A stretch of 64,000 bases of DNA from Candidatus Gottesmanbacteria bacterium. Lineage in GTDB: Bacteria; Patescibacteriota; Microgenomatia; UBA10105; UBA927. Below the pieces are notes generated by a model, which was not told where the DNA came from, did no database searches, and saw only the letters and a list, made by a program, of their open reading frames with translations. Location: positions 8,719-72,718 of the forward strand of contig JAUXTO010000025.1 of the NCBI GenBank assembly GCA_030679255.1, read 5' to 3'. Below, piece by piece: positions 1,791-63,430 of this stretch; position 1 is the first letter of the stretch, and the number at the start of each line of letters is the position of its first letter. The position numbers and the translations under genes are program-made.

Positions 1791-2588
1791 ATGAAAAAAG
1801 TATCTCTCTATCTATTCACCATTTCCATGATGTCTCTTCTATTTCCATCGCCGGTGGCGTTGGCTGCACTAGCCACTCCGTCAGCCGCGCCAAAGGTCAG
1901 TACAGCAAGCGCGACCACAAAAAAAATTGAAGACCTCAAGGATCGATTGGCGACCAAGGTTGCCGAGCTTCGACAGACTTCCCGCCGTGCAATCGTGGGC
2001 ACGGTCAAATCTACATCGATCACGAGCTTTGTTGTAGAAACAAAAACGAAAGACATTAAAATCGAGCTTATGGATGAAATCAAAGTAATACAATATCTTA
2101 AAGGCAAACGAACGATTCTTACTGGTGAAGATATAGCCAAAGGTGATCTCGTCGCGGTCTTTGGGGAACACGATGCCACGCTGGACCTACTCAAAGCCAC
2201 CATCGTCGTGATTCAATCCCGAAGTCCCGAGCGTATTTCGGGCACAGTCAGTGCACGCGACGACACGGAGTTTACGCTGACCATTACCACACCACAAGGA
2301 CAAACGATGATGATAGATATCGAAAAAGCAACGAAAACACTCGCCTGGAATCGGGAGAAGAAAGAAATTATCAAATCCGGATTTTCTAAAATCACCGTCG
2401 GGGCTACTGTCCACATCGTAGGATTCCCCGTTCCCAAAAAAGAAAATCGGATGAGCGCCGACCGGATTCTTGACCTTGGCAATCTTGCCTCCCCCGCGGA
2501 TCTTGCGATTCCGTCTACACCGACCCCTACGGAAAAACAAGCATCTCCTTCGGCCGCAGCCACCAAGAAACCTACTCCAACCCCGTAA
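1791..2588 (+). CDS. Hypothetical secreted protein (signal peptide, P/T-rich C-terminus)
   Basis: Start chosen at MKKVSLYLFTISMMSLLFPSPVALA (signal-peptide-like). The C-terminus is PSTPTPTEKQASPSAAATKKPTPTP. Confidence 0.5.
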   Translation: MKKVSLYLFTISMMSLLFPSPVALAALATPSAAPKVSTASATTKKIEDLKDRLATKVAELRQTSRRAIVGTVKSTSITSFVVETKTKDIKIELMDEIKVIQYLKGKRTILTGEDIAKGDLVAVFGEHDATLDLLKATIVVIQSRSPERISGTVSARDDTEFTLTITTPQGQTMMIDIEKATKTLAWNREKKEIIKSGFSKITVGATVHIVGFPVPKKENRMSADRILDLGNLASPADLAIPSTPTPTEKQASPSAAATKKPTPTP

Positions 2589-2697
2589 AGGCCTGGCCTT
2601 AGCCTTGTTTATCCTGAGCTTGTCGCAGGAGAAGGCCTGGCCTTGAGACTGTTACGATTTGACCGTTCTATTCTCGGTATGCTATCGTATTACCATA

Positions 2698-4982: not shown

Positions 4983-6280
4983 ATATGAACATCTACTCAC
5001 TCAGCGCCATACCGAACACTGTATATGACCGTGTCATGAAGCGATCATATGGATCCAGAGCGGACATACTCCCTCGCGTTCAACAAATTTTTGAAGATGT
5101 AAGAAAATACAAAGACCGTGCACTTTTCCAAGAATATGAAAAGCGATTCGGCTTAACTCCTTCATTTTCTTTAAAAATATCACGCAAGGAAATAAAAAGT
5201 GCGTATAAGAGGGTTGACTCGTCTCTGGTTCAAGCGCTCCAACAGATGATAAAAAATATTACCAAAGTAACTACGGCTCAGATGAAGTCAAAAACTGAGA
5301 CTGCAGTATCTACGGAAAAAGGGGTCAGAGCATGGCGGGAATGGAGAGCAATAGAAAAGGTTGGCCTCTATATTCCCGGCGGAAAAGCTGTGTATCCATC
5401 TTCAGTGCTCATGAGTGGGATACCTGCGATGGTTGCCGGATGCAAAGAAGTCATTCTCTGCTCCCCTCCTTCGGATAAAGGAAAAATTCCAGCGATTATC
5501 CTCGTCGCGGCAGATATGATCGGTATTTCAAATATTTACTCCGTAGGCGGCGCTTACGCGATTGCGGCGCTGACGATTGGCACAGAAAGCATACCAAAAG
5601 TCGACAAAATTATTGGTGCGGGAAATGCGCTTGTCACGACCGCTAAAATACTAGCACTTGAAACCACAAGTATCGATATGCCGGCAGGACCGTCTGAGGT
5701 ATTCATCATCGCAGACGAATCCGCAAATCCTTCCTACATCGCTTCGGATCTTCTGGCAGACGGCGAACACGGAGATGACTCGGCGTGCGTCCTCGTCACA
5801 ACATCATCTGATGTCGCCAAGAGCACGATACTTGAAATAGAAAAACAATTAATACACTTGCCTACTGCATCTCGTGTTCGCGAATCGCTAAGAAAGTACG
5901 GACTCGTTGCCGTTGTCAATTCTCTAGAGCAAGCAATCATTTTTGCAAATGACTACGCACCGGAGCACTTGGAAATTATGACAAAAAATCCAGTCGCGGT
6001 ATCTAAAAAAATTAATAATGCTGGCTCTGTTTTTATCGGAAACTATACATCCAAATCGGCAGGAGACTATGCTACCGGTGCGAATCACATATTGCCGACC
6101 GGTGGCATGGCAAAATCATATCCTCCTCTAGGTGTAGACGCGTTTGGGAAATGGATGCAGATCCAAGAATGCACAAAACAGGGCTTAAAAAATATTCAAA
6201 AAACAATTGAAGCCATCGCGACAGTGGAACAATTGCCAGCACACAAAAATTCTACATCAATACGATTTCAAAGTATATGA
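4983..6280 (+). CDS. hisD: Histidinol dehydrogenase
   Basis: HisD family motifs (GGKAVYPSSVLMSGIPAMVAGC, NHILPTGG). Start chosen at MNIYSLS just after the hisG stop. Confidence 0.9.
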
Positions 6281-10427: not shown

Positions 10428-11627
10428 ATGGACCTACTAAAAAATATAGACGCCCTTCTCATTACTAACCCGACGAATATCCGGTATCTCACTGGATTCG
10501 TCGGTGCGGCGCCGGAGGAGAGGGAAGCATACTGCTTGCTTACCAACTCTCAAACGTATCTCTTCATTAATGCGCTTTATACTGAATACGCAAATACACT
10601 TGTTTCACCATCTAAGCAAGGCAGTAATAATCCAATAATCCAATTCTCAAATAATCCAATAAAAATAGTCAAAATTTCCCGCGGGGAACCTTTTGCAAAA
10701 AAACTTGGTGATGTTCTGAAAAGGTCTCACCTTGCCAAACCGCAAGGTGAGACCTTAAAAGGAATTCGCCTCGGATTTGAAGAGAGCAACTTGACCGTCG
10801 CAGAATTCGAAAAATTAAAAAAAGAATTGCCCGGCATCACCCTTGTCCCAACACAAAACAGAATTGAAGAACTCCGGATGATCAAGCGCGATGATGAAAT
10901 CGAAAACATCCGACAGGCTGCAAAGATTACGGATCAGTGTTTTACCTATCTTACCACCATACTAAAACCTCGTGTTACTGAACTTGAAATCGCCTGGAAA
11001 ATCGAGTCCTTCATTCGCTCCCGCGGCGCGGGTCTTGCCTTCTCCCCCATCGTCGCGTTTGGCTCAAACACCTCGCAACCGCACTATTCACCAAAATCTA
11101 GCCTTAAAAGGTCTCACCTTTTAAGGCTAAAAAATCAAGATATTGTGCTACTGGATTTCGGCGCGAAGATTAACGGCTACTGCAGCGACATGACCCGCAT
11201 GGTGTTTATTGGCAAACCCGAGGCTGAATGGGTGAACGCTTACGAAACGGTTTCGAGAGCGCAAACCATGGCTCTCGAGTATCTAGCCTCAAGGCCTGGC
11301 CTTGAGGCTACGGGTGATAAAGTCGATCAGATCGCACGGGATATCATTGAAAATGCAGGGTTCCCTACCTATCCCCACTCTCTGGGTCACGGGGTGGGAT
11401 TGGATATTCATGAAGCACCACGATTGAGAACCAATCCTTCAATAAATTCAGAACAACCAGTTACATCCCGCGCTTCGCAAAGACTCATGCCCGGCATGGT
11501 CGTCACGGTTGAGCCAGGAATATATATCGAAGGACAGTATGGCGTACGCCTCGAGGATTTGATACTCTTGAAAGAAGACGGGATTGAATTACTATCAAAA
11601 TCAAATAAACATATCACTATACTTTAG
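10428..11627 (+). CDS. M24 family Xaa-Pro aminopeptidase carrying three in-frame palindromic-element insertions
   Basis: M24 motifs (DFGAKINGYCSDMTR, HSLGHGVGLDIHE, VEPGIY). Palindromic elements are embedded at 10717-10762, 11098-11130 and 11283-11310; one of them encodes KSSLKRSHLLRLKNQ. Confidence 0.8.
   Translation: MDLLKNIDALLITNPTNIRYLTGFVGAAPEEREAYCLLTNSQTYLFINALYTEYANTLVSPSKQGSNNPIIQFSNNPIKIVKISRGEPFAKKLGDVLKRSHLAKPQGETLKGIRLGFEESNLTVAEFEKLKKELPGITLVPTQNRIEELRMIKRDDEIENIRQAAKITDQCFTYLTTILKPRVTELEIAWKIESFIRSRGAGLAFSPIVAFGSNTSQPHYSPKSSLKRSHLLRLKNQDIVLLDFGAKINGYCSDMTRMVFIGKPEAEWVNAYETVSRAQTMALEYLASRPGLEATGDKVDQIARDIIENAGFPTYPHSLGHGVGLDIHEAPRLRTNPSINSEQPVTSRASQRLMPGMVVTVEPGIYIEGQYGVRLEDLILLKEDGIELLSKSNKHITIL
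10717..10762. repeat. REP-like family 1 derivative (extended palindrome around ggtctcacc / ggtgagacc)
   Basis: tgaaaaggtctcaccttg-ccaaaccg-caaggtgagaccttaaaagg. It lies inside pepP and is in frame. Confidence 0.7.
11098..11130. repeat. REP-like family 1 element
   Basis: ctagccttaaaagg-tctca-ccttttaaggctaa. In frame in pepP (SLKRSHLLRL). Confidence 0.8.
11283..11310. repeat. Family 1b palindrome (same outer arms, centre aaggcctggcctt)
   Basis: ctagcctcaaggcc-t-ggccttgaggcta. The same 13-bp core appears twice at 2587-2644. Confidence 0.7.
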
Positions 11628-18434: not shown

Positions 18435-18680
18435 TCAGGCTCTCACGACATAAGGCAAGAGCGCCATAAACCGTGCACGTTTCACTTCGCGGGTCACTGC
18501 CCGCTGATGGGTACTGCAAATACCCGTTCGCGCTCGGCCCAAAAGTTTACCGCGCTCGCTTGCAAACCGGCCAATCGCCGCAACATCTTTATAATCCGGC
18601 ACGGTTTTATTTTTACAAAAACCACAGTTGGTCGGTACCGGGCGTTCTTTTATCTGAAATCGGTTACTTCGTTTCATCAT
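18435..18680 (-). CDS. rpsR: Ribosomal protein S18
   Basis: CGFCKNKTVPDYKDV...RFMALLPY is the S18 signature. Confidence 0.85.
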   Translation of the reverse strand: MMKRSNRFQIKERPVPTNCGFCKNKTVPDYKDVAAIGRFASERGKLLGRARTGICSTHQRAVTREVKRARFMALLPYVVRA

Positions 18681-18791
18681 ATAGTTGCGATACCAATCTA
18701 CGAATGCATACTAATGCAACGAATAAAATCTCACGCTCTTCTTTATTCGTATCATTGGCATCAATTCGTTGATTCGCATCGGATCTGTTCG

Positions 18792-19340
18792 TTAAAACGG
18801 TATATCATCCGGATTGACTTCTTCTTTCCCCTCCGGTGGTTTCACGGTTTTCGTATCATCCGGTGCCTGCTTGACGCTAGGCTGAGCAACACTTTGTGTG
18901 GTTCCAGATGGCGGTGGTGTCGATATTCCGGCCGCACTCCCCGCATGACTACTGCCGCTTTCTGATCCTGTATCTGCGCTACTCACTTCTTCTCCCGCCG
19001 GACGGCGAGAGTCCAAGAGTATCATATCCTCGATAACCACCTCTGTCGTCGTCCGCTGACTGCCGTCTTGCCCGGTCCAGGCGGCCGTCCGCAGTCTGCC
19101 TTCCACATAAATCTTCCGGCCTTTGGTGAGAAGCTGGCTACAAAGCTCAGCAAGCTTGTTCCAGGCGACCACGCGGTGAAACTCAACTTCTTCCTTTTTT
19201 TCTCCTGCCTCCGTCGTCCAATACCGGTTGGTAGCCAGACCAATGGTGCAGACTGCCGCGCCGCTTGGCGTATACCGGAGTTCCGGATCACGCGTCAAAT
19301 TTCCGATAAGTTCAACCTTGTTTAAGCTTCGTGATGCCAT
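18792..19340 (-). CDS. ssb: Single-stranded DNA-binding protein
   Basis: OB-fold N-terminus (VELIGNLTRDPELRYTPSG) and an acidic C-terminal tail ending DDIPF. Confidence 0.9.
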   Translation of the reverse strand: MASRSLNKVELIGNLTRDPELRYTPSGAAVCTIGLATNRYWTTEAGEKKEEVEFHRVVAWNKLAELCSQLLTKGRKIYVEGRLRTAAWTGQDGSQRTTTEVVIEDMILLDSRRPAGEEVSSADTGSESGSSHAGSAAGISTPPPSGTTQSVAQPSVKQAPDDTKTVKPPEGKEEVNPDDIPF

Positions 19341-49118: not shown

Positions 49119-50270
49119 TTATGAAAGGAATTGTGTGACAATTGCAAGTACTTCTTGTTTTTGTACTTCTGTAACCACCACTTCCACGATTCCCTCCTCG
49201 GGCCCGCCTGCAACGCTATGCGTACCCGTCTGCAGCGATGCAGCAGCTTCGGGCAGGGCATTGCGGGCAGGCTGACCATAATAAAGAATACTTCCCAATG
49301 GAGCGTATTGGATGACCGGTAGGACTAAGAGGTCTTCTTCGCCGTTCACGATGATGGCGTGATGCGTATCTCCTGGTCTTACTTTTCTGGCAAGCGCTGC
49401 TTGTATTGCCACCACGGCATCACGACTAATAAACCCCGGTCCACTATGCAAAAATTTAGCCTTAAAAGGTGAGACCTTTTGAGGCTGAAGTCTGTTTACT
49501 ATTTCCGGGAATGGTTTCCGGCCTACTTGGCCATCAATGACGGCCAAGCACGGCATGACGCCGAGATCCAACACGGTCTTCGTCGATAAATCCCCGACCG
49601 TTATGACGAAATCGTGTTCGTGTGACCGTATCGAGACGTCTATCGCTTTTCCACGGAGAATCTTCCCCATCGGCTTGCCGAGCGCGGCGCGCAGCCTCTC
49701 CGGCATGATGAGTCTCCCGTCCCCGTCAATCTCTCCCTTTCGCAGCCGTGTCGAAGAAATCGGCTTTCCATCCTCGGCCGGTACGATCGGCACTTCGATG
49801 AGCGCGAGCGGTGACAGGGCCAGGCCCTGTCTGAGACCATTGATACGCTCTCCGGTCGAACGGTTCTCATATGTGACAATGAGCGCAGTGAGATCCCTCA
49901 TGCTCGCCGCAGGTTCGTGAGGATCAGAGATCGGGATAATGGTCGTCCGATTGAAATATCGTCGCTTGTGCAACCATGCTATGAGATAGCATTTCCTTTC
50001 TTTATATGTGCTTATTTTTTTTTGAATTTGCACATTGGGATTTGTTTGGTCATTGGGATTTGGAAATTGGGATTTATACTTTACAACAAACTCGTCTGTT
50101 GTCAGCCCGATAGTCACCCGCTCGCCTACCCGAAATGCCTCAGATAGAATTGATCGGTGCCCCGCGTGGAGCCCGTCAAACGTCCCGGCGACGAAAATGT
50201 GGTGATATAAATAATCTTTTAGAAGTTTATTATTAAGGATAGTCACAGAGGAATAATACAATATGATCAC
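49119..50270 (-). CDS. Fusion: archaeal-type phosphopantetheine adenylyltransferase-like (HxGH) N-domain plus a DUF359/dephospho-CoA kinase-like C-domain
   Basis: The N-domain has FVAGTFDGLHAGHRSIL...IGLTTDEFV. The C-domain has VITVGDLSTKTVLDLGVMPCLAVIDGQVGRKPF. It hosts a 10-bp repeat block at 50032-50075 and a REP-like element at 49447-49478. Confidence 0.5.
   Translation of the reverse strand: MIILYYSSVTILNNKLLKDYLYHHIFVAGTFDGLHAGHRSILSEAFRVGERVTIGLTTDEFVVKYKSQFPNPNDQTNPNVQIQKKISTYKERKCYLIAWLHKRRYFNRTTIIPISDPHEPAASMRDLTALIVTYENRSTGERINGLRQGLALSPLALIEVPIVPAEDGKPISSTRLRKGEIDGDGRLIMPERLRAALGKPMGKILRGKAIDVSIRSHEHDFVITVGDLSTKTVLDLGVMPCLAVIDGQVGRKPFPEIVNRLQPQKVSPFKAKFLHSGPGFISRDAVVAIQAALARKVRPGDTHHAIIVNGEEDLLVLPVIQYAPLGSILYYGQPARNALPEAAASLQTGTHSVAGGPEEGIVEVVVTEVQKQEVLAIVTQFLS
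49447..49478. repeat. REP-like family 1 element
   Basis: ttagccttaaaaggtgagaccttttgaggct. In frame in the PPAT/DPCK-like gene (QPQKVSPFKA). Confidence 0.8.
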
Positions 50271-52473: not shown

Positions 52474-53635
52474 CCCCTTTTGGAATCCCCTGCCCGAGTA
52501 CGAGAAAATTGCGACCGAAGTGCATACGGCAATCGCCCGCGTCCTCTCCTCGGGCACGCTCATCCTGGGGCCGGAAGTCGCAGCGTTTGAAACATCCTTT
52601 GCGCAATACATTGGCTGCCGGTATGGTATTGGGGTGGGTAATGGGACGGATGCCATCATTCTCGCCCTCAAAGCGCTCGGAGTGGGTCAGGATGACGAAG
52701 TGATTACCGCCGCCAATACAGCTATCCCCACCGTCGCGGCAATCATGGCGGTTGGTGCAGTACCCAAGCTCGTTGACGTACTCCCTGATTCCCTGCTTAT
52801 GGATCCCGCCAAACTTCAAGGCGCCATTACAAAGCGTACCCGCGCAATAATCCCCGTCCATCTCTACGGACAATCGTGCGATATGGACACGATTATGAAG
52901 ATCGCAACATCCAAAAAGGTATTCGTCATCGAAGACTGCGCGCAGGCGACGGGGGCCGAGTATAAGTCAAAAGTCTCCGCCAAAGGCGGACCAGCCTATG
53001 GCCGGAAAAGTCGAAAGTCAAAAGTTGGTTCGATGGGGAGTATCGCAACATTTTCGTTTTATCCGACCAAAATCATCGGCTGCTACGGCGATGGGGGGAT
53101 GATTACGACCAATAATCCCGCTCTTGCCAAGCGGGTACGAAGTTTACGCATGTATGGCACCGAGGGAACGTACAACGCTATAATCGAAGGAGGAATTAAT
53201 TCACGACTCGATGAACTCCAGGCTGCCATCCTATCTGTCAAATTGAAAAACATCAAACGCTGGATCAAGGAGCGGCAACGTCTCGCCCATCGCTACAATC
53301 AGGGTCTCAAGAGTACACCACTTATTCTTCCGTCTCAGCCTCAAAAGGTCTCACCTTTTGAGGCTAATTCCCATGTTTTTCACCTCTATATCATCCGACA
53401 CACGAAACGCATAGAAATTCAAAAATATTTAAGAATGCACGGTATCGGCACGGCTATCCACTACCCGGTCCCCATCCACCTTATGCCCGCGTACAGCAAA
53501 TTAGGATACGAAAAAGGAGATTTTCCCGTCGCCGAAGGGGCGTGTCATTCTGTGCTTTCGCTTCCGCTCTATCCGGGGCTGACTGACGACGATCAGGATC
53601 GTATCATCAATGCGCTTCGCGCGTACTTCAAATAA
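52463..53635 (+). CDS. DegT/DnrJ/EryC1/StrS family sugar aminotransferase with an in-frame REP-like insertion
   Basis: IPFWNP...GNGTDAI...SFYPTKIIGCYGDGGMITT. The element at 53336-53367 encodes SQPQKVSPFEAN. Confidence 0.85.
   Translation: MKSIPFWNPLPEYEKIATEVHTAIARVLSSGTLILGPEVAAFETSFAQYIGCRYGIGVGNGTDAIILALKALGVGQDDEVITAANTAIPTVAAIMAVGAVPKLVDVLPDSLLMDPAKLQGAITKRTRAIIPVHLYGQSCDMDTIMKIATSKKVFVIEDCAQATGAEYKSKVSAKGGPAYGRKSRKSKVGSMGSIATFSFYPTKIIGCYGDGGMITTNNPALAKRVRSLRMYGTEGTYNAIIEGGINSRLDELQAAILSVKLKNIKRWIKERQRLAHRYNQGLKSTPLILPSQPQKVSPFEANSHVFHLYIIRHTKRIEIQKYLRMHGIGTAIHYPVPIHLMPAYSKLGYEKGDFPVAEGACHSVLSLPLYPGLTDDDQDRIINALRAYFK
53336..53367. repeat. REP-like family 1 element
   Basis: cagcctcaaaaggtctcaccttttgaggctaa is a perfect palindrome. 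In frame in the DegT gene. Confidence 0.8.
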
Positions 53636-55069: not shown

Positions 55070-55105
55070 CATAAATCTAGCCTTAAAAGGTCTCACCTTT
55101 TGAGG

Positions 55106-55843
55106 CTAATCTTCATCAATTTCTGCTTTTGCAATATACCGAATACTTTCAACTTCAAAATCATAATCCTGTATCTCGACAAACTCTTTATATGACTGTA
55201 ATCCCGTTTTCGCTTTAGAGAAATAAGAAAGAATTGTCTTTGGCTTCACCCACTCTTGATGAATCTCTCCCAGGTAATTGGGATACGATGACGGTTGTAA
55301 CCGCAATATTTGAGATCGCTTTTTTGGATCTAGCCTTAAAAGGTGAGACCTTTTGAGGCTAAACGGATTACGGTGGATATATCGGGATACATGAAGAAGC
55401 TGCGCGTCATTAGTAATCAAGACTGCCTTATACGTTCCTTGAAAGACAGACCCTACTCGCTTGTGCCGGCTGTTTTCATACATCGTAAACCGAGTCATCA
55501 CAGATTGTACAAATTCACTCATGTCTGACTCCCCTTTTTGCTGGAGAAGAAAATGGAAATGATTGGGCATCAGGCAATAGGCCAAAAGATCAATCTTACC
55601 AGTAAAATTCTTTAGTCGAAGCTCTCGTGCTGCTACCCCACGTTCTTTATAGGAAAGGGATTCCTCTGACGCCATCTCCCGAAGTTTTTTTTCATCTTTT
55701 GGACGTAATGCGGTTGCAATATAAGAAAGGAATACTCGATAATCCTGATCATCAATGAATATATCCGCTTTATTCACTCCTCGATTATAGACATGATACA
55801 CCCCATCAGAGACGTACGATTTGATGATATTTTTGGCAGGCAT
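55106..55843 (-). CDS. REP-associated tyrosine transposase (RAYT; IS200/IS605-like HuH Y1 transposase), with a REP copy inserted near the catalytic Tyr
   Basis: YHVYNRGVNKADIF, HuH MPNHFHFLL, and RYIHRNP (the Y motif). SLKRSHLLRL is inserted immediately after NPF, via the element at 55330-55362. Confidence 0.8.
   Translation of the reverse strand: MPAKNIIKSYVSDGVYHVYNRGVNKADIFIDDQDYRVFLSYIATALRPKDEKKLREMASEESLSYKERGVAARELRLKNFTGKIDLLAYCLMPNHFHFLLQQKGESDMSEFVQSVMTRFTMYENSRHKRVGSVFQGTYKAVLITNDAQLLHVSRYIHRNPFSLKRSHLLRLDPKKRSQILRLQPSSYPNYLGEIHQEWVKPKTILSYFSKAKTGLQSYKEFVEIQDYDFEVESIRYIAKAEIDED
55330..55362. repeat. REP-like family 1 element inside the RAYT gene
   Basis: ctagccttaaaaggtgagaccttttgaggctaa. 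Confidence 0.8.
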
Positions 55844-55906
55844 GCCATCAGTATGCGCGAAGTGATAAAAAAATACAATAGCCTTAAAAGGTGAGACCTT
55901 TTGAGG

Positions 55907-57031
55907 CTAAGTCTTCAAAACCTTCTGATAGACTTTTTCGTAACCCTCGACCATTTTCTCTACGGTAAAGTTTTCCTCGACATGCCTCCGGCAAGCGGCG
56001 CGGTCGATTTCTCCGATGCGTTTGACGGCTTCGACCAGCCCCTCTACCCCACGTTTTTTGATGACCCACTTCCCGTCTTTATTGGTAGTATTGGTAGTAT
56101 TTGTCTGATTTGTAGTATTGGTAGTATTATCATTTGGTTCTACGATAAACCCCGTCACTCCGTCCTTGACGATTTCAGAAACTGACCCCCGGTTGTAGGC
56201 GATGACCGGCGTCCCGCACGCCATGGCCTCAATCATCACGAGCCCAAACGGCTCTTCCCAGTGGATGGGGAATAGGAACGCTTTCGCATTACCTAAAAAA
56301 TCATACTTCAACGGACCAATCATTCGATCTAATAGACGAATCATCGCGCCATCAACTTCAGCGTTTATGCGTTTCAGATATGCTTCCTGGCCCTTTTCCT
56401 CAAAACCAACAAGCGTCAGCACGTCTCCAGTTTTTTTTGCCGTCATGATTGCATCAATTGCCCCTTTATTTTCCGAAAAACGTCCCATCCAGGCTACATA
56501 CGATGGTTTCTGTGGATGGAAAACAAATGGAACGTTTAAAGCGTCAATACCGTTGTAAACTACGCTCGAGAAATGGATGTAGGGCAACGCTCGTTTGGCG
56601 CCTTCGGATAATGCTATAAAAAATTCATGAGGAAATCGTTCGAATACTTTCTGTTCCCGCATCGCAAAATTAGCGCCGTGTGTGGTTGAAACGACGGGTG
56701 GACGAACCGCATGGATATAGGGTAATAATACGTGCTCTATATGACTATGTACGATATCAAACTGACCGAGCTCCGGAACTATTTTTTCTGCATACGCATG
56801 CTGAAGCGCAACACTTTCACGATCAAATAGTGATCGACCGGATTCTTTGAGCGATGGGCCACTAAAGCGCAGCAATACACGCGGAAACACTGACTTATCC
56901 GGAGCAAACACCGTAACCGTGTGGCCTCTCGCCTTGAGCCCCAAGGTGACATCCCGCACCACGGCTTTTATACCGATTGCCTTCTCAGAATCAAACGCAG
57001 ACCAATTGGGTAAAATTTGCGCAACGTTCAT
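55907..57031 (-). CDS. GT4 family glycosyltransferase
   Basis: EEPFGLVMIEAMACGTPVIAYNRGSVSEIV. An internal TNTTNQTNTTNTTN stretch comes from ttggtagtat repeats at 56081-56129. Confidence 0.85.
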   Translation of the reverse strand: MNVAQILPNWSAFDSEKAIGIKAVVRDVTLGLKARGHTVTVFAPDKSVFPRVLLRFSGPSLKESGRSLFDRESVALQHAYAEKIVPELGQFDIVHSHIEHVLLPYIHAVRPPVVSTTHGANFAMREQKVFERFPHEFFIALSEGAKRALPYIHFSSVVYNGIDALNVPFVFHPQKPSYVAWMGRFSENKGAIDAIMTAKKTGDVLTLVGFEEKGQEAYLKRINAEVDGAMIRLLDRMIGPLKYDFLGNAKAFLFPIHWEEPFGLVMIEAMACGTPVIAYNRGSVSEIVKDGVTGFIVEPNDNTTNTTNQTNTTNTTNKDGKWVIKKRGVEGLVEAVKRIGEIDRAACRRHVEENFTVEKMVEGYEKVYQKVLKT

Positions 57032-58188
57032 GCTGTAAGTAACTTCTCATATACTGCTTCGTGATCCGTTACCATGCGCGAAATAGTAAAATGTTCTTCA
57101 ACGTGGCGGCGGCATGCCATACGGTCAATCTCTCCGATGCGCTTCACGGCTTCAACCAGTCCTTCAACCCCTGTTTTTTTTATCACCCAACTCCCCTTAT
57201 TCCTCCAAGCTCCCGTTTCATCCGGATCGATGATAAAACCCGTAACACCATCGTTTACTATCTCCGCTGCACTTCCCCTGTTATACGCGATGACCGGTGT
57301 CCCACACGCCATCGCTTCAATCATGACCATTCCAAATGGCTCTTCCCATCGTAGGGGCATGATAAATGCCTTGCCTTTTTTTATAAAATCTGATTTCTCT
57401 TTCCCGGCCAGATATCCTGACAGACATACGGATGTTCCGTCGATATGAGGCGCTATTTTCGTATCATAAAACTCCTGCGACTGATTACCGCGTATTGAAC
57501 TCGTTGCGACATGGAGTGGCAATCCTGCGGCGTGAGCCACCTCTATAGCAATATCCGCGCCCTTATCTTCCATGACCCTGCCGAAGTAGATGAGATGATT
57601 ATCGGGGGTAAGGTCGACGTCATATTCATCCAAAGCCAAACCATGATAAATTGTTGCTATAAAATTCATTGGGATTATACTGTGTCGCTGCGAATCGCTG
57701 ATTGATAGATAGTTGTGATGCAAAAACCGGTGATAACGAAAATACTCAAGGGTCGTTGGCAACTGAGGGAGCGGATCGTGGATGGTGTAAACGGTCGGAA
57801 ATGACGTCAATTCATTAAGGTAATGCGCACCAAAATCATGGTACGAGTGAATGATATCAAGCTTCCCATCTCGCGCATCGTTGTATGCTTTCAAAGTTAA
57901 GTCATACTCAAAGTCCCTTTTAAGAATTTCAAAAGCTGCAAACTTTTGCTCCGCTGCTTCACGGTACCGGAATTGATAATAATACGGGTCATGCGCGACG
58001 AGCTCACTGTCTCCACTGACAAGTTGAGCTTTTGTGACAACTTCAGAAGCAGAATAAAAACGTACCGTATGACCTCTGTCTACTAAAGAATCAGCTAATT
58101 GAATCGCAAGAGGAAGTGGGGCAAATATTCTCCCCTCTCCGTATCTTTTTGTGGCATAAATGGAAGGGAGGAGCATGCCGATTTTCAT
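57028..58188 (-). CDS. GT4 family glycosyltransferase, a tandem paralog
   Basis: EEPFGMVMIEAMACGTPVIAYNRGSAAEIV. The C-terminal ~50 aa are near-identical to the neighbouring GT4. Confidence 0.85.
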   Translation of the reverse strand: MKIGMLLPSIYATKRYGEGRIFAPLPLAIQLADSLVDRGHTVRFYSASEVVTKAQLVSGDSELVAHDPYYYQFRYREAAEQKFAAFEILKRDFEYDLTLKAYNDARDGKLDIIHSYHDFGAHYLNELTSFPTVYTIHDPLPQLPTTLEYFRYHRFLHHNYLSISDSQRHSIIPMNFIATIYHGLALDEYDVDLTPDNHLIYFGRVMEDKGADIAIEVAHAAGLPLHVATSSIRGNQSQEFYDTKIAPHIDGTSVCLSGYLAGKEKSDFIKKGKAFIMPLRWEEPFGMVMIEAMACGTPVIAYNRGSAAEIVNDGVTGFIIDPDETGAWRNKGSWVIKKTGVEGLVEAVKRIGEIDRMACRRHVEEHFTISRMVTDHEAVYEKLLTA

Positions 58189-62449: not shown

Positions 62450-63430
62450 TTAGCTTCGCCAAGTTTGACTTGACGAAGCTAGCTTTTTCCCGAGCACCAG
62501 CCAAAGGAATTGGAGCAACCGTAGTTGTCTCCCAAACCGCCAAGGTTCAATGACCAGCCGCCAGAGCCACTCGAGGCCAAGCGATCGGAAAAAATGCGGT
62601 GCGCGGGGCACTCGTCCGGCAATGATGTCAAAACTGCCGCCGACGGACATGAAAACGATGCTTTTCCTGTCATCCCGGGCTTGACCCGGGATCCATTCTT
62701 TTTTCTCTGGATTCCGGCTCAGAGGCCGGAATGACAAAATATGGGCAAGCTGCTCTATAAAAAATTCCTGCTTCGGTGCCCCCAACCCCACGAAGACGAT
62801 GCATATCCTTGTTTTTCTTATCTTTTCAATAATATCTTTCGTGTATTGGTAGTATTTGAGTATTGTCCCGCTGCTGTTTCCGATATTTATTGGATTACAG
62901 CAGCGTGGATCCCGCTTCGCGGGAGTAGCATTTGACATTGGTAGTATTGGCATTTCCTCCGGCTCCTCCGCCCACCCCACCAACCCCGGATACTTTATTT
63001 TCAGTTGCCCGAGCGCCTCCTGCGCCACTCCATCTCTCCCGCCGATGAGCGCGACCGGCCAACCCTTTGCCGCGGCCATCGCCACCAGATCTTCCATAAA
63101 CTCCACACCGGGGATTCTTTGCAAACCTATGTCCTGAGTCTTATGTCCTACGTCCTTCCCAAGAAAACGCAGCGCGGCGACAAGACCTATCCCGTCCGGG
63201 ATTGCCACATCAGCACCATTAAGGATCTCAGCAAAATGTTTATCGGTTTGCGCGGCGATGATCTGTTCCGGATTCGGTGTGACAATAACGAGGGGTTTCC
63301 GGTTTTTATTGGATAATTGGATAATTGGATAATTGGATAATTCTAAGTACTTCCGTACATGTTCTACTATTTCATCCTTTGGACTCGCCGTCACCGATAT
63401 TCCGAGTATTTTTGTTGATGCCAACTTCAT
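62450..63430 (-). CDS. WecB/TagA/CpsF (GT26) family glycosyltransferase with in-frame repeat insertions
   Basis: LVIVTPNPEQII...DVAIPDGIGLVAALRFLG...GLGAPKQE. The element at 62669-62735 encodes EKKEWIPGQARDD. An 8-bp repeat x4 sits at 63309-63342. Confidence 0.7.
   Translation of the reverse strand: MKLASTKILGISVTASPKDEIVEHVRKYLELSNYPIIQLSNKNRKPLVIVTPNPEQIIAAQTDKHFAEILNGADVAIPDGIGLVAALRFLGKDVGHKTQDIGLQRIPGVEFMEDLVAMAAAKGWPVALIGGRDGVAQEALGQLKIKYPGLVGWAEEPEEMPILPMSNATPAKRDPRCCNPINIGNSSGTILKYYQYTKDIIEKIRKTRICIVFVGLGAPKQEFFIEQLAHILSFRPLSRNPEKKEWIPGQARDDRKSIVFMSVGGSFDIIAGRVPRAPHFFRSLGLEWLWRLVIEPWRFGRQLRLLQFLWLVLGKKLASSSQTWRS
62669..62735. repeat. Family 2 multi-hairpin element, in frame in the WecB/TagA gene
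   Basis: gtcatcccgggcttgacccgggatccattcttttttctctggattccggctcagaggccggaatgac. Confidence 0.8.

Follow-up and report, generated by a model that had tools for sequence, protein, structure and literature searches.

A probable REP/RAYT-type system in Candidatus Gottesmanbacteria, with palindromes in frame inside proteins

Repetitive extragenic palindromes (REPs) and their REP-associated tyrosine transposases (RAYTs), together with the doublets known as REPINs, form the best-studied long-lived, vertically inherited intragenomic replicator, which is known mainly in Proteobacteria and from extragenic positions. Here, we describe a RAYT-like gene and its palindromes in a 64-kb stretch of contig JAUXTO010000025.1 from Candidatus Gottesmanbacteria (Microgenomates), hereafter the window. 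To judge from sequence comparisons, they probably represent a REP/RAYT-type system, or "REPtron", of bacteria of the Candidate Phyla Radiation (CPR). The E. coli transposase TnpAREP provides the basis for hairpin binding, foot cleavage, and strand rejoining by such enzymes (PMC3479197, PMC8266576), and its active site is obstructed by the C-terminal tail that follows the Tyr helix, deletion of the tail making the enzyme hyperactive (Messing 2012, PMC3479197). Classical RAYTs carry the signature NP(L/V)(R/K)xG after the catalytic Tyr, and a conserved N-terminal Thr has also been described (Nunvar 2010, PMC2817692). The flanking repeats of RAYT Groups 1 and 4 are low in copy number, with 12-14 occurrences (Bertels 2017, PMC5581495). 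In-frame REPs within genes, as well as Rickettsia palindromic elements (RPEs), were also described earlier (Di Nocera 2013, PMC3733652). For classical RPE-1 (Ogata 2000, cited in PMC3733652), the description in that paper is limited to insertions of greater length; no transposase is associated with the other RPEs or the CGTC-type repeats that it reports (PMC3733652). The window system is known in kind, since intragenic REPs and low-copy RAYT repeats have both been described before.

A search of the window with the pattern TAGCCTYAAAAGG-N5-CCTTTTRAGGCTA, tolerating up to 3 mismatches, found six copies of a 31-bp palindrome, TAGCCTYAAAAGGT-(CTC/GAG)-ACCTTTTRAGGCTA (Table 1), versus 0 matches across 100 dinucleotide-preserving shuffles of the window. 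The palindrome consists of a 14-bp stem and a 3-nt loop, which is either CTC or GAG. Its ends are 5′ (T/C)AGCC and 3′ GGCT(A/G), the TAG pairs with the 3′ CTA, and the base preceding the TAG is C, T, or A, never G. Folding as single-stranded DNA (ssDNA) gave energies of -9 to -16 kcal/mol (z -3.8 to -8.4), and the GC skew, considered as a clue to the hairpin-forming strand, is negative throughout. Four of the six copies lie within open reading frames (ORFs) and two overlap stop codons, and five are found at most 6.5 kb from the RAYT gene. The 13-nt core, AAGGT(CTC/GAG)ACCTT, occurs eight times in the window against an expectation of 0. The two extra cores form a nested palindrome, AAGGTCTCACCTT-GC-CAAACC-GC-AAGGTGAGACCTT, in which they are arranged as an inverted, REPIN-like pair. 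A second tip type, with the core AAGGCCTGGCCTT, is present in three copies (0 expected), one of which, TAGCCTCAAGGCC-T-GGCCTTGAGGCTA, has the outer arms of the main palindrome. An earlier sequence-only reading of this DNA had proposed a recurring palindrome with two loop states, and both are borne out by these counts. Its list of copies holds for the six full ones, with the position 49447 corrected to 49457. The copy that it placed at 10717 is the nested doublet, and its total of at least nine copies blends two tip types with that doublet. Rfam, searched at gathering thresholds, gave no match in the window.

The single RAYT-like gene of the window lies between two of these palindromes. Its translation contains the motifs VYHVYNRG, NHFHFLL (HUH), and SRYIHRNP (with the catalytic Tyr), and matches the Pfam family Y1_Tnp (PF01797) with 35.2 bits, above the 23-bit cut-off. 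Residues H95, H97, and Y155 and the N-terminal YHxYNRG are invariant in an alignment of 41 homologs. An AlphaFold (AF2) model built on these homologs had a mean predicted local distance difference test score (pLDDT) of 86.8 and a predicted template modeling score (pTM) of 0.85. The best Foldseek match of the model was 4er8_A, E. coli TnpAREP bound to a REP hairpin (E 6e-6, TM score 0.68, target-normalised), and IS608 TnpA and ISDra2 TnpA ranked next. Compared with IS608 and ISDra2 TnpA, the protein is longer, owing to a helical hairpin inserted at aa 47-76 and to some 80 aa of C-terminal sequence. A 100% identical protein is listed under the name "transposase" on a 75-kb contig of a Candidatus Gottesmanbacteria metagenome-assembled genome (MAG), and 6,402 database proteins match it at E<=1e-10, those with a source name being from Patescibacteria/Microgenomates.

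The palindromes that border the gene are merged with its neighbours. The last three nucleotides of the upstream copy are the TAG stop (55907-55909) of the glycosyltransferase gene GT4 (55907-57031, minus strand), and the downstream copy, which carries the stop of the RAYT gene itself, ends 5 nt before the ATG (55072) of a GT5/starch-synthase-like gene. Thus, the proposal that the flanking copies provide stop codons, through their terminal CTA/TAG, was found to be correct for both genes. The gene is also bracketed, as had been proposed, by a palindrome that recurs elsewhere, namely in four further window copies; the same arrangement is seen in two related genomes, H41-bin149_1 (H41, a Patescibacteria MAG) and H43-bin113_1 (H43), in both of which the position of the upstream copy is REP-filled (L009 and L003, respectively). 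The description of the two copies as being in classical inverted orientation is not supported. Because the arms are perfect or near-perfect palindromes, orientation rests on the 3-nt loop alone. Read along the RAYT sense strand (upstream, internal, downstream), the loops are CTC, CTC, and GAG in the window, GAG, CTC, and CTC in H41, and CTC in all three copies of H43. Between the RAYT and GT5 genes (55073-55108, minus strand), the REP-arm AAGG stands 8 nt upstream of the GT5 ATG (AAGGCTAGATTTATG), likewise in H41, and the palindrome may supply the GT5 ribosome-binding site and hide it when folded.

Three conserved enzyme genes carry the palindrome in frame: pepP, a DegT/DnrJ aminotransferase gene, and a fusion gene (49119-50270, minus strand) with the domains CTP_transf_like and DUF359, whose product matches the solved phosphopantetheine adenylyltransferase (PPAT) 3do8 and the GTP-dependent dephospho-CoA kinase (DPCK) 8jvc. 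The encoded peptides are SLKRSHLLRL, which is read in both pepP and the RAYT gene as had been pointed out earlier, and QPQKVSPF(E/K)A in the DegT and PPAT/DPCK genes. The REP segments correspond to gaps of 7 residues in pepP (against PDB 5cdl), 6 in DegT (against 7b0d and 3frk), and 8 in PPAT/DPCK (against 8jvc). Element-free alleles, which the sequence-only reading had suggested looking for, were found among the Gottesmanbacteria orthologs of pepP (P0132, P0136, P0137, P0147, P0157, and P0190) and of PPAT/DPCK (P0260, P0268, P0270, and P0291). Filled alleles of the same two families are translations of tip variants, including QPQKVSPF, LQKVKPF, QPRRVRPF, QPEKVTPF, QPQKASPF, SLKRSH, SLKRPR, and KRSDLLRLKGPTL. 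By these alignments, the three in-frame copies are insertions, as had been claimed; no solved homolog has them and, in the case of pepP and PPAT/DPCK, neither do some of the orthologs. In pepP, at least three insertion hot spots (A, B, and C) were seen; the element at site C is a perfect palindrome also in the ortholog L095, and its peptide is common among pepP orthologs. Only stop-free reading frames are in use. Translation through the QPQK frame is possible with both loop types, provided that the first T is C, whereas the SLKR frame is open with the CTC loop only, because GAG makes AGG-TGA. The third frame holds TGA or TAA and is used only in RAYTs of the L011/L017 type, in which one arm is mutated.

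One might still read the in-frame segments as ordinary lineage-specific coding sequence in which no insertion took place and the palindromy is incidental. Some segments are indeed common in Gottesmanbacteria orthologs (e.g., LASRPGLEA in pepP), and in short RAYTs the REP-filled linker is no longer than the linker of REP-free relatives. This explanation is extremely unlikely. It leaves the chance expectation of 0 matches unaccounted for, along with the recurrence of identical stretches of 29-31 nt at two intergenic spots and in four genes unrelated to one another. Solved homologs and a share of the orthologs lack the segments, and compensatory changes (see below) preserve the palindromy while the peptide changes. 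The shuffles and the element-free alleles effectively refute it.

Table 1. Palindromes and RAYT-like gene in the 64-kb window
Feature	Position	Strand	Remarks
REPIN-like doublet in pepP, site A	10721..10756	+	in frame, KRSHLAKPQGETL; -16.4 kcal/mol
REP in pepP (Xaa-Pro peptidase, Peptidase_M24), site B	11099..11129	+	in frame, SSLKRSHLLRL
Second-type REP in pepP, site C	11284..11310	+	tip GGCCTGGCC, arms TAGCCTCAA...TTGAGGCTA, LASRPGLEAT
REP in PPAT + GTP-dependent DPCK fusion gene	49457..49487	-	in frame, LQPQKVSPFKAK
REP in DegT/DnrJ aminotransferase gene	53336..53366	+	in frame, SQPQKVSPFEAN
REP at RAYT 3′ end	55078..55108	.	terminal TAG is the RAYT stop (55106-55108)
RAYT-like Y1/HUH gene	55106..55843	-	245 aa, intact ORF
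Decayed tandem second REP in RAYT	55298..55330	-	33 nt, DPKKRSQILRL
REP in frame within RAYT, site 2	55331..55361	-	FSLKRSHLLRL; directly after the YIHRNP Tyr motif
REP 5′ of RAYT	55879..55909	.	36 nt upstream of RAYT start
Two intergenic direct copies of second-type core	2588..2644		AAGGCCTGGCCTT at 2588-2600 and 2632-2644

A scan of genomes for the exact pattern, using one genome per species, found 14 loci. Seven of the ten exact copies in H41 are on the 21-kb contig that holds its RAYT gene and that is syntenic with window positions 48-64 kb. Further exact copies were found once each in H43, in three Levyibacteriota MAGs, and in one Shapirobacteria MAG. Three short contigs labelled "uncultured Gammaproteobacteria" also have the exact palindrome, in frame (L002, CAZLDC010000072.1; L008, CAYHFH010000134.1; L012, CAYVAR010000040.1). 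The REP-bearing ORFs of L002 and L008 are orthologous to H41 genes, which suggests that these contigs are probably mis-binned; no such ortholog was seen for L012. In H41, two REPs (L001:4882-4910 and 5553-5581) stand 671 nt apart with an identical 12-nt left flank, TTGCAGAAAATT, which suggests either a longer repeated unit or a REP-bracketed segment.

The gene order GT4-RAYT-GT5 is common to the window, H41 (L009, 88% RAYT protein identity), H43 (L003, 71%), and a metagenome locus (L015, 56%). The conserved synteny and the presence of only one RAYT in the window therefore point to a domesticated, vertically inherited gene rather than to an insertion sequence. The unit from REP to REP (55078-55909) would, on the latter explanation, be an autonomous element of the IS200/IS605 type, with the palindromes as its ends and as solo ends or miniature inverted-repeat elements (MITEs). 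The Y1_Tnp match, the fold resembling IS608 and ISDra2 TnpA, and the hairpins bordering the gene, as in IS200, fit such an element. We consider it very unlikely, given that the locus is constant across four genomes whose RAYT proteins are as little as 56% identical, that there is one copy in 64 kb, and that both ends are the same near-perfect palindrome instead of distinct, imperfect left and right ends. Moreover, the flanking REPs are merged with the stop codon and start region of the neighbours, and the 245-aa protein has an extra C-terminal region and no accompanying tnpB.

Besides its two flanking copies, the RAYT gene has a REP within its own ORF, in the linker that joins the catalytic core to the C-terminal region (pLDDT 63 at residues 161-170). 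The adjacent tandem copy has decayed; it reads DLDKRSHVLRS in H41, and exactly its 11 codons are missing in H43, as seen from the tblastn gap against L003 and from protein alignments. The RAYTs of H41 and H43 each have an in-frame REP that occupies the corresponding codons following YIHRNP. Another 80 RAYT loci (34-56% identity) were taken from metagenomes, bringing the total to 85, of which 84 have a full-length ORF. Hairpins with a stem of at least 10 bp occur at 5.37 per kb in the RAYT flanks, compared with 0.38 per kb in the rest of the loci (14-fold, p ~1e-70), and are about twice as dense inside the RAYT ORFs as in the rest of the loci. The flanking palindrome of each locus, selected with hairpin thresholds of our own setting, was used as the probe for internal copies. 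In 22 of the 85 loci it was also found inside the RAYT ORF, in 27 copies, all of which fall, in the numbering of the window protein, within aa 47-62 (site 1, n = 10) or aa 160-176 (site 2, n = 17). As a control, probing with dissimilar palindromes of other loci gave matches in 11 of 7014 pairs. Thus, each RAYT pairs with its own lineage-specific palindrome across some 85 divergent loci. Ten extra cognate copies were found in the flanks of the metagenome loci, seven of them within ORFs of at least 150 aa, the shortness of the contigs keeping this number small. In the predicted structure, site 1 falls in the helical-hairpin insertion, between the first helix and strand 2, and site 2 in the low-confidence linker following the catalytic-Tyr helix.

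The sequence-only reading took the REP after the catalytic Tyr as a sign that the transposase may have inactivated itself. This is unsupported, because the ORF is intact, the in-frame REP is retained in the H41 and H43 orthologs (88% and 71% identity), and REPs at site 2 are found throughout the clade. Among the 116 closest homologs, YIHxNP and QPSSY are invariant, and the stretch between them ranges from 2 to 29 residues and mostly resembles REP translations (SLKRSHLLRL, SLKRPRLLRL, SLKRLNLLRT, SLEGSHPSRL, ASKGETLQG, etc.). RAYTs at 70-88% identity differ in their tips (SLKRSH, SLKRPR, SLEGSH, and SLKRLN), and several lineages have internal "barcodes" that match their palindromes, with SLKRSD for CGG, SLKRLN for TAA, and SLKRPR for CCTCG. 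On the REP/RAYT reading, the REP is no disabling insertion and sits in a permissive, hypervariable linker that is REP-like in most clade members. An origin of site 2 by fusion, with translation continuing through a REP once located 3′ of the gene and on into the next ORF, was considered and rejected. Related RAYT-like proteins presumably continue to a YPWSS-like motif that would match QPSSY, and the fusion was discarded because Nunvar's signature places an NP-led motif right after the Tyr in classical RAYTs.

A natural form of the RAYT without the C-terminal region was found in L031 (286-792), where a homolog of 168 aa has its TGA stop inside the site-2 palindrome. A convergent gene of 340 aa ends in the same palindrome. 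This form looks like a secondary truncation. It is related to a more speculative idea, namely that the REP within the RAYT ORF, at the junction with the C-terminal region that corresponds to the inhibitory tail of E. coli TnpAREP, is a built-in control. Inversion or excision of the hairpin would switch the RAYT back and forth between a full-length, inhibited form and a truncated, active form, with resident REPs in essential genes being overwritten in place. In the SLKR frame, a change of the loop from CTC to GAG yields the AGG-TGA stop, and loop flips are seen between orthologous copies; it is also conceivable that deletion from REP to REP would truncate the RAYT at site 2. We regard such a control as quite doubtful. 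If it were true, the system would be a transposase-driven gene-conversion system working on coding DNA.

Comparison of copies at orthologous positions indicated how the palindromes have been maintained. Between the window and H41, the REP arms are identical at 127 of 130 positions (26 arm positions in each of five orthologous copies; 98%), compared with 1053 of 1326 positions (79%) in the 150-nt, mostly coding flanks of these copies, a difference that indicates concerted evolution in place. The DegT and PPAT/DPCK copies are each identical to their H41 counterparts at 29 of 29 nucleotides, and in two of the five orthologous pairs a flipped loop is the sole difference. All three copies at the H43 RAYT locus have the same compensatory arm change, from AAAAGG/CCTTTT to GAAGGG/CCCTTC. 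The DNA of pepP was compared in five genomes, the window and four orthologs (L095, L096, L097, and L098). In each of the five, the doublet at site A begins at one and the same nucleotide, following ...CTGA(A/C), and the tips differ: AAGGTCTCACC in the window and L098, AAGGTGTCACC in L095, AAGGTCGGACC in L096, and AAGGTTAAACC in L097. Across the five genes, the tips are CTC, GTC, CGG, and TAA, and several sites of the same pepP have a common tip in three of the four genomes with multiple elements (the window, L096, and L097). Identity within genomes, combined with divergence between genomes at fixed positions, thus argues for copying among copies, by conversion or precise replacement. Independent drift does not account for the tip pattern in these alignments.

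The same conservation could also be expected if the palindromes were fixed cellular sites, such as structural, regulatory, or replication/repair hairpins, and the RAYT a fully domesticated hairpin-specific nuclease or binding protein. Genome-specific tips would then result from site-by-site selection matching the drifting specificity of the protein. We consider this explanation unlikely, albeit worth weighing. It is in line with the low copy number, the long retention at the same positions in pepP, PPAT/DPCK, DegT, and the RAYT locus, REP arms much more conserved than the neighbouring coding DNA, a syntenic, single-copy RAYT, and the confinement of the L096 and L098 copies to pepP, distant from any RAYT. 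It sits poorly with the occurrence of the same element in unrelated genes and intergenic spots, with presence/absence polymorphism among orthologs, and with the tandem duplicate and its decay in the RAYT, which resemble insertion and turnover. The host genes have no common functional context, and the co-adaptation of some ten sites one by one is less parsimonious than copying. In addition, the T·G wobble of four window copies, which are few and probably related, lies on the plus strand, antisense to the host genes, and therefore a role as mRNA hairpins is not favoured.

A REP/RAYT-type system would account for these observations as follows. A single, vertically inherited Y1/HUH gene between two cognate hairpin-forming palindromes would encode an ssDNA nuclease-ligase, which, by homology with E. 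coli TnpAREP, is predicted to bind REP hairpins on ssDNA and to cleave and rejoin them at their feet. The RAYT may copy or exchange REPs preferentially in cis, seeding copies nearby, which would account for their clustering around the gene, and may overwrite resident copies in place, which would account for the concerted evolution. Selection would purge insertions that break reading frames or strike structured parts of proteins; those that persist would be stop-free, have a length that is a multiple of three, and lie in loops. Surviving copies would be in frame in surface loops because the genome is almost without intergenic space, and the two sites in the RAYT would be the two permissive loops of the gene nearest the enzyme.

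Several observations weigh against this interpretation. The case is wholly comparative, and the activity of the RAYT on hairpins is predicted from the fold match to 4er8. The fold search alone detected this relationship; profile and single-sequence searches of the PDB found no Y1 relative of the protein. The earlier assignment of the gene as a RAYT stands with respect to the Y1/HUH motifs, the PF01797 match, and the 4er8 fold, whereas the NCBIfam model REP_Tyr_transpos (NF047646) gives 50.6 bits, below its cut-off of 80, and of the signature NP(L/V)(R/K)xG only the NP is kept, because the REP-encoded hypervariable linker occupies that spot. The palindromes differ from classical REPs in having no unpaired 5′ GTAG/GTGG head at the foot of the hairpin. 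They are also few, with ten exact copies in H41, and ~10 copies are an order of magnitude below the classical tens to hundreds. L098 has two different tips in its pepP, and homogenisation is therefore incomplete. Proximity to a RAYT is not a full explanation either, as all copies on L096 (21 kb) and L098 (15 kb) are in pepP and neither locus has a RAYT in its vicinity. Finally, the boundaries of the insertions coincide from genome to genome, which would be expected from in-place conversion, but also from precise re-insertion at a target site.

Other repeats and insertions were observed in and around the genes discussed above. The second-type core AAGGCCTGGCCTT borders RAYTs of other lineages (L020, L024, L026, and L028), and only one RAYT is present in the window although the second tip type occurs there; the source genome may contain a second RAYT elsewhere, or the relics of one. 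At 62451-62481, a 31-nt palindrome, TAGCTTCGCCAAGT-TTG-ACTTGACGAAGCTA, overlaps the stop of the ORF 62450-63430 (minus strand), and its outer arms are similar to those of the REP bordering the RAYT lineage of L026 (TAGCTTCGCAAGGCCTGGCCTTGCGAAGCTA). The BsaI site (GGTCTC) in the tip of the main palindrome was rejected as a meaningful feature, because tips differ between genomes. The DegT gene has a 48-nt in-frame insertion at 52967-53014 (16 codons, VSAKGGPAYGRKSRKS) that is not found in solved DegT homologs and is of a kind other than REP, with an 11-nt direct repeat, AAGTCAAAAGT, at its bounds and a small hairpin, TCCGCC-AAA-GGCGGA, inside. A GC-rich in-frame insertion of ~22 aa (ARNALPEAAASLQTGTHSVAGGPEEG) is located at 49173-49274 in the PPAT/DPCK gene and occurs in a minority of orthologs, with the variants ATHNVAGGPGEG and ATQSVAGGPGQG; it may represent another family of palindromic inserts. 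The GT4 gene next to the RAYT contains, at 56063-56140, a low-complexity insertion, NDNTTNTTNQTNTTNTTNK, of ACTACCAAT-like tandem units, which the neighbouring GT4 paralog (57028-58188) does not have. A long imperfect inverted repeat at 18670-18799 (arms of 58 nt, 72% complementary, 14-nt spacer) is unrelated to the REP family.

These findings, which are based on this locus, some 85 related loci, and three host-gene families, point to a large RAYT clade (the 6,402 proteins noted above) whose named members belong to the Patescibacteria/CPR. The genomes of these bacteria are reduced and densely packed with genes, and their palindromes reside within protein-coding sequence, that of the presumed mobilising enzyme included. 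At orthologous codons, the copies have stayed palindromic, and most have a tip that is common within the genome, which provides a culture-free, comparative signal of ongoing copying or conversion. A portion of the short, so far unexplained insertions that swell the CPR protein families examined here can be simply explained in this way. Each RAYT bears a built-in readout of the REP type of its genome, and the question of how RAYTs spread REPs becomes testable with short, defined substrates. A literature search, which was not exhaustive, found no report of a RAYT clade in Patescibacteria/CPR, of cognate REPs at two fixed sites inside a RAYT ORF, of orthologous housekeeping genes with differing tip variants at one and the same codon, or of evidence for in-place REP homogenisation resulting from these.

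Among described systems, REP/RAYT (E. coli TnpAREP/YafM with REP/BIME; Pseudomonas REPIN-RAYT; Bertels & Rainey 2011, PMC3116915) also has a single-copy, syntenic Y1/HUH gene between repeated palindromes, palindrome and protein co-vary between lineages, and TnpAREP is the best fold match of the window protein. Inverted doublets of the REPIN type are found here as well (10721-10756, and in L048, L078, and L087), and the low copy number agrees with that of Groups 1 and 4 (PMC5581495). The window system differs in its host, a member of the Patescibacteria/CPR, in its protein, which scores below the NCBIfam RAYT cut-off and keeps only the NP of the signature, and in its near-perfect palindromes, which are oriented by the 3-nt loop alone. 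Its copies are mostly intragenic and in frame rather than extragenic, cognate REPs occupy two fixed sites in the RAYT ORF, and copies at orthologous positions evolve in concert. Given the score below the NCBIfam cut-off, the missing NPxRxG motif and GTAG head, the low copy number, and the intragenic location, the system is therefore better described as REPtron-like than as a classical member.

IS200/IS605 TnpA proteins (IS608 and ISDra2) have the HUH/Y1 catalytic fold in common with the window protein and recognise ssDNA hairpins, an activity that homology predicts for the window protein too. The window gene is neither multi-copy nor mobile as a unit, both of its flanks are the same palindrome, and its protein is longer, owing to the helical hairpin and the C-terminal region. 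The likeness to RPEs and intragenic REPs that was drawn in the sequence-only reading is apt: both are short palindromic repeats in frame in conserved protein genes, missing from orthologs and tolerated in loops, and both include doublets and several insertions per gene. The window elements are distinguished from them by their size of 27-36 nt and their pairing with a cognate RAYT, by the presence of an element in the RAYT gene itself, and by the different tip variants found at the same codon position in orthologs.

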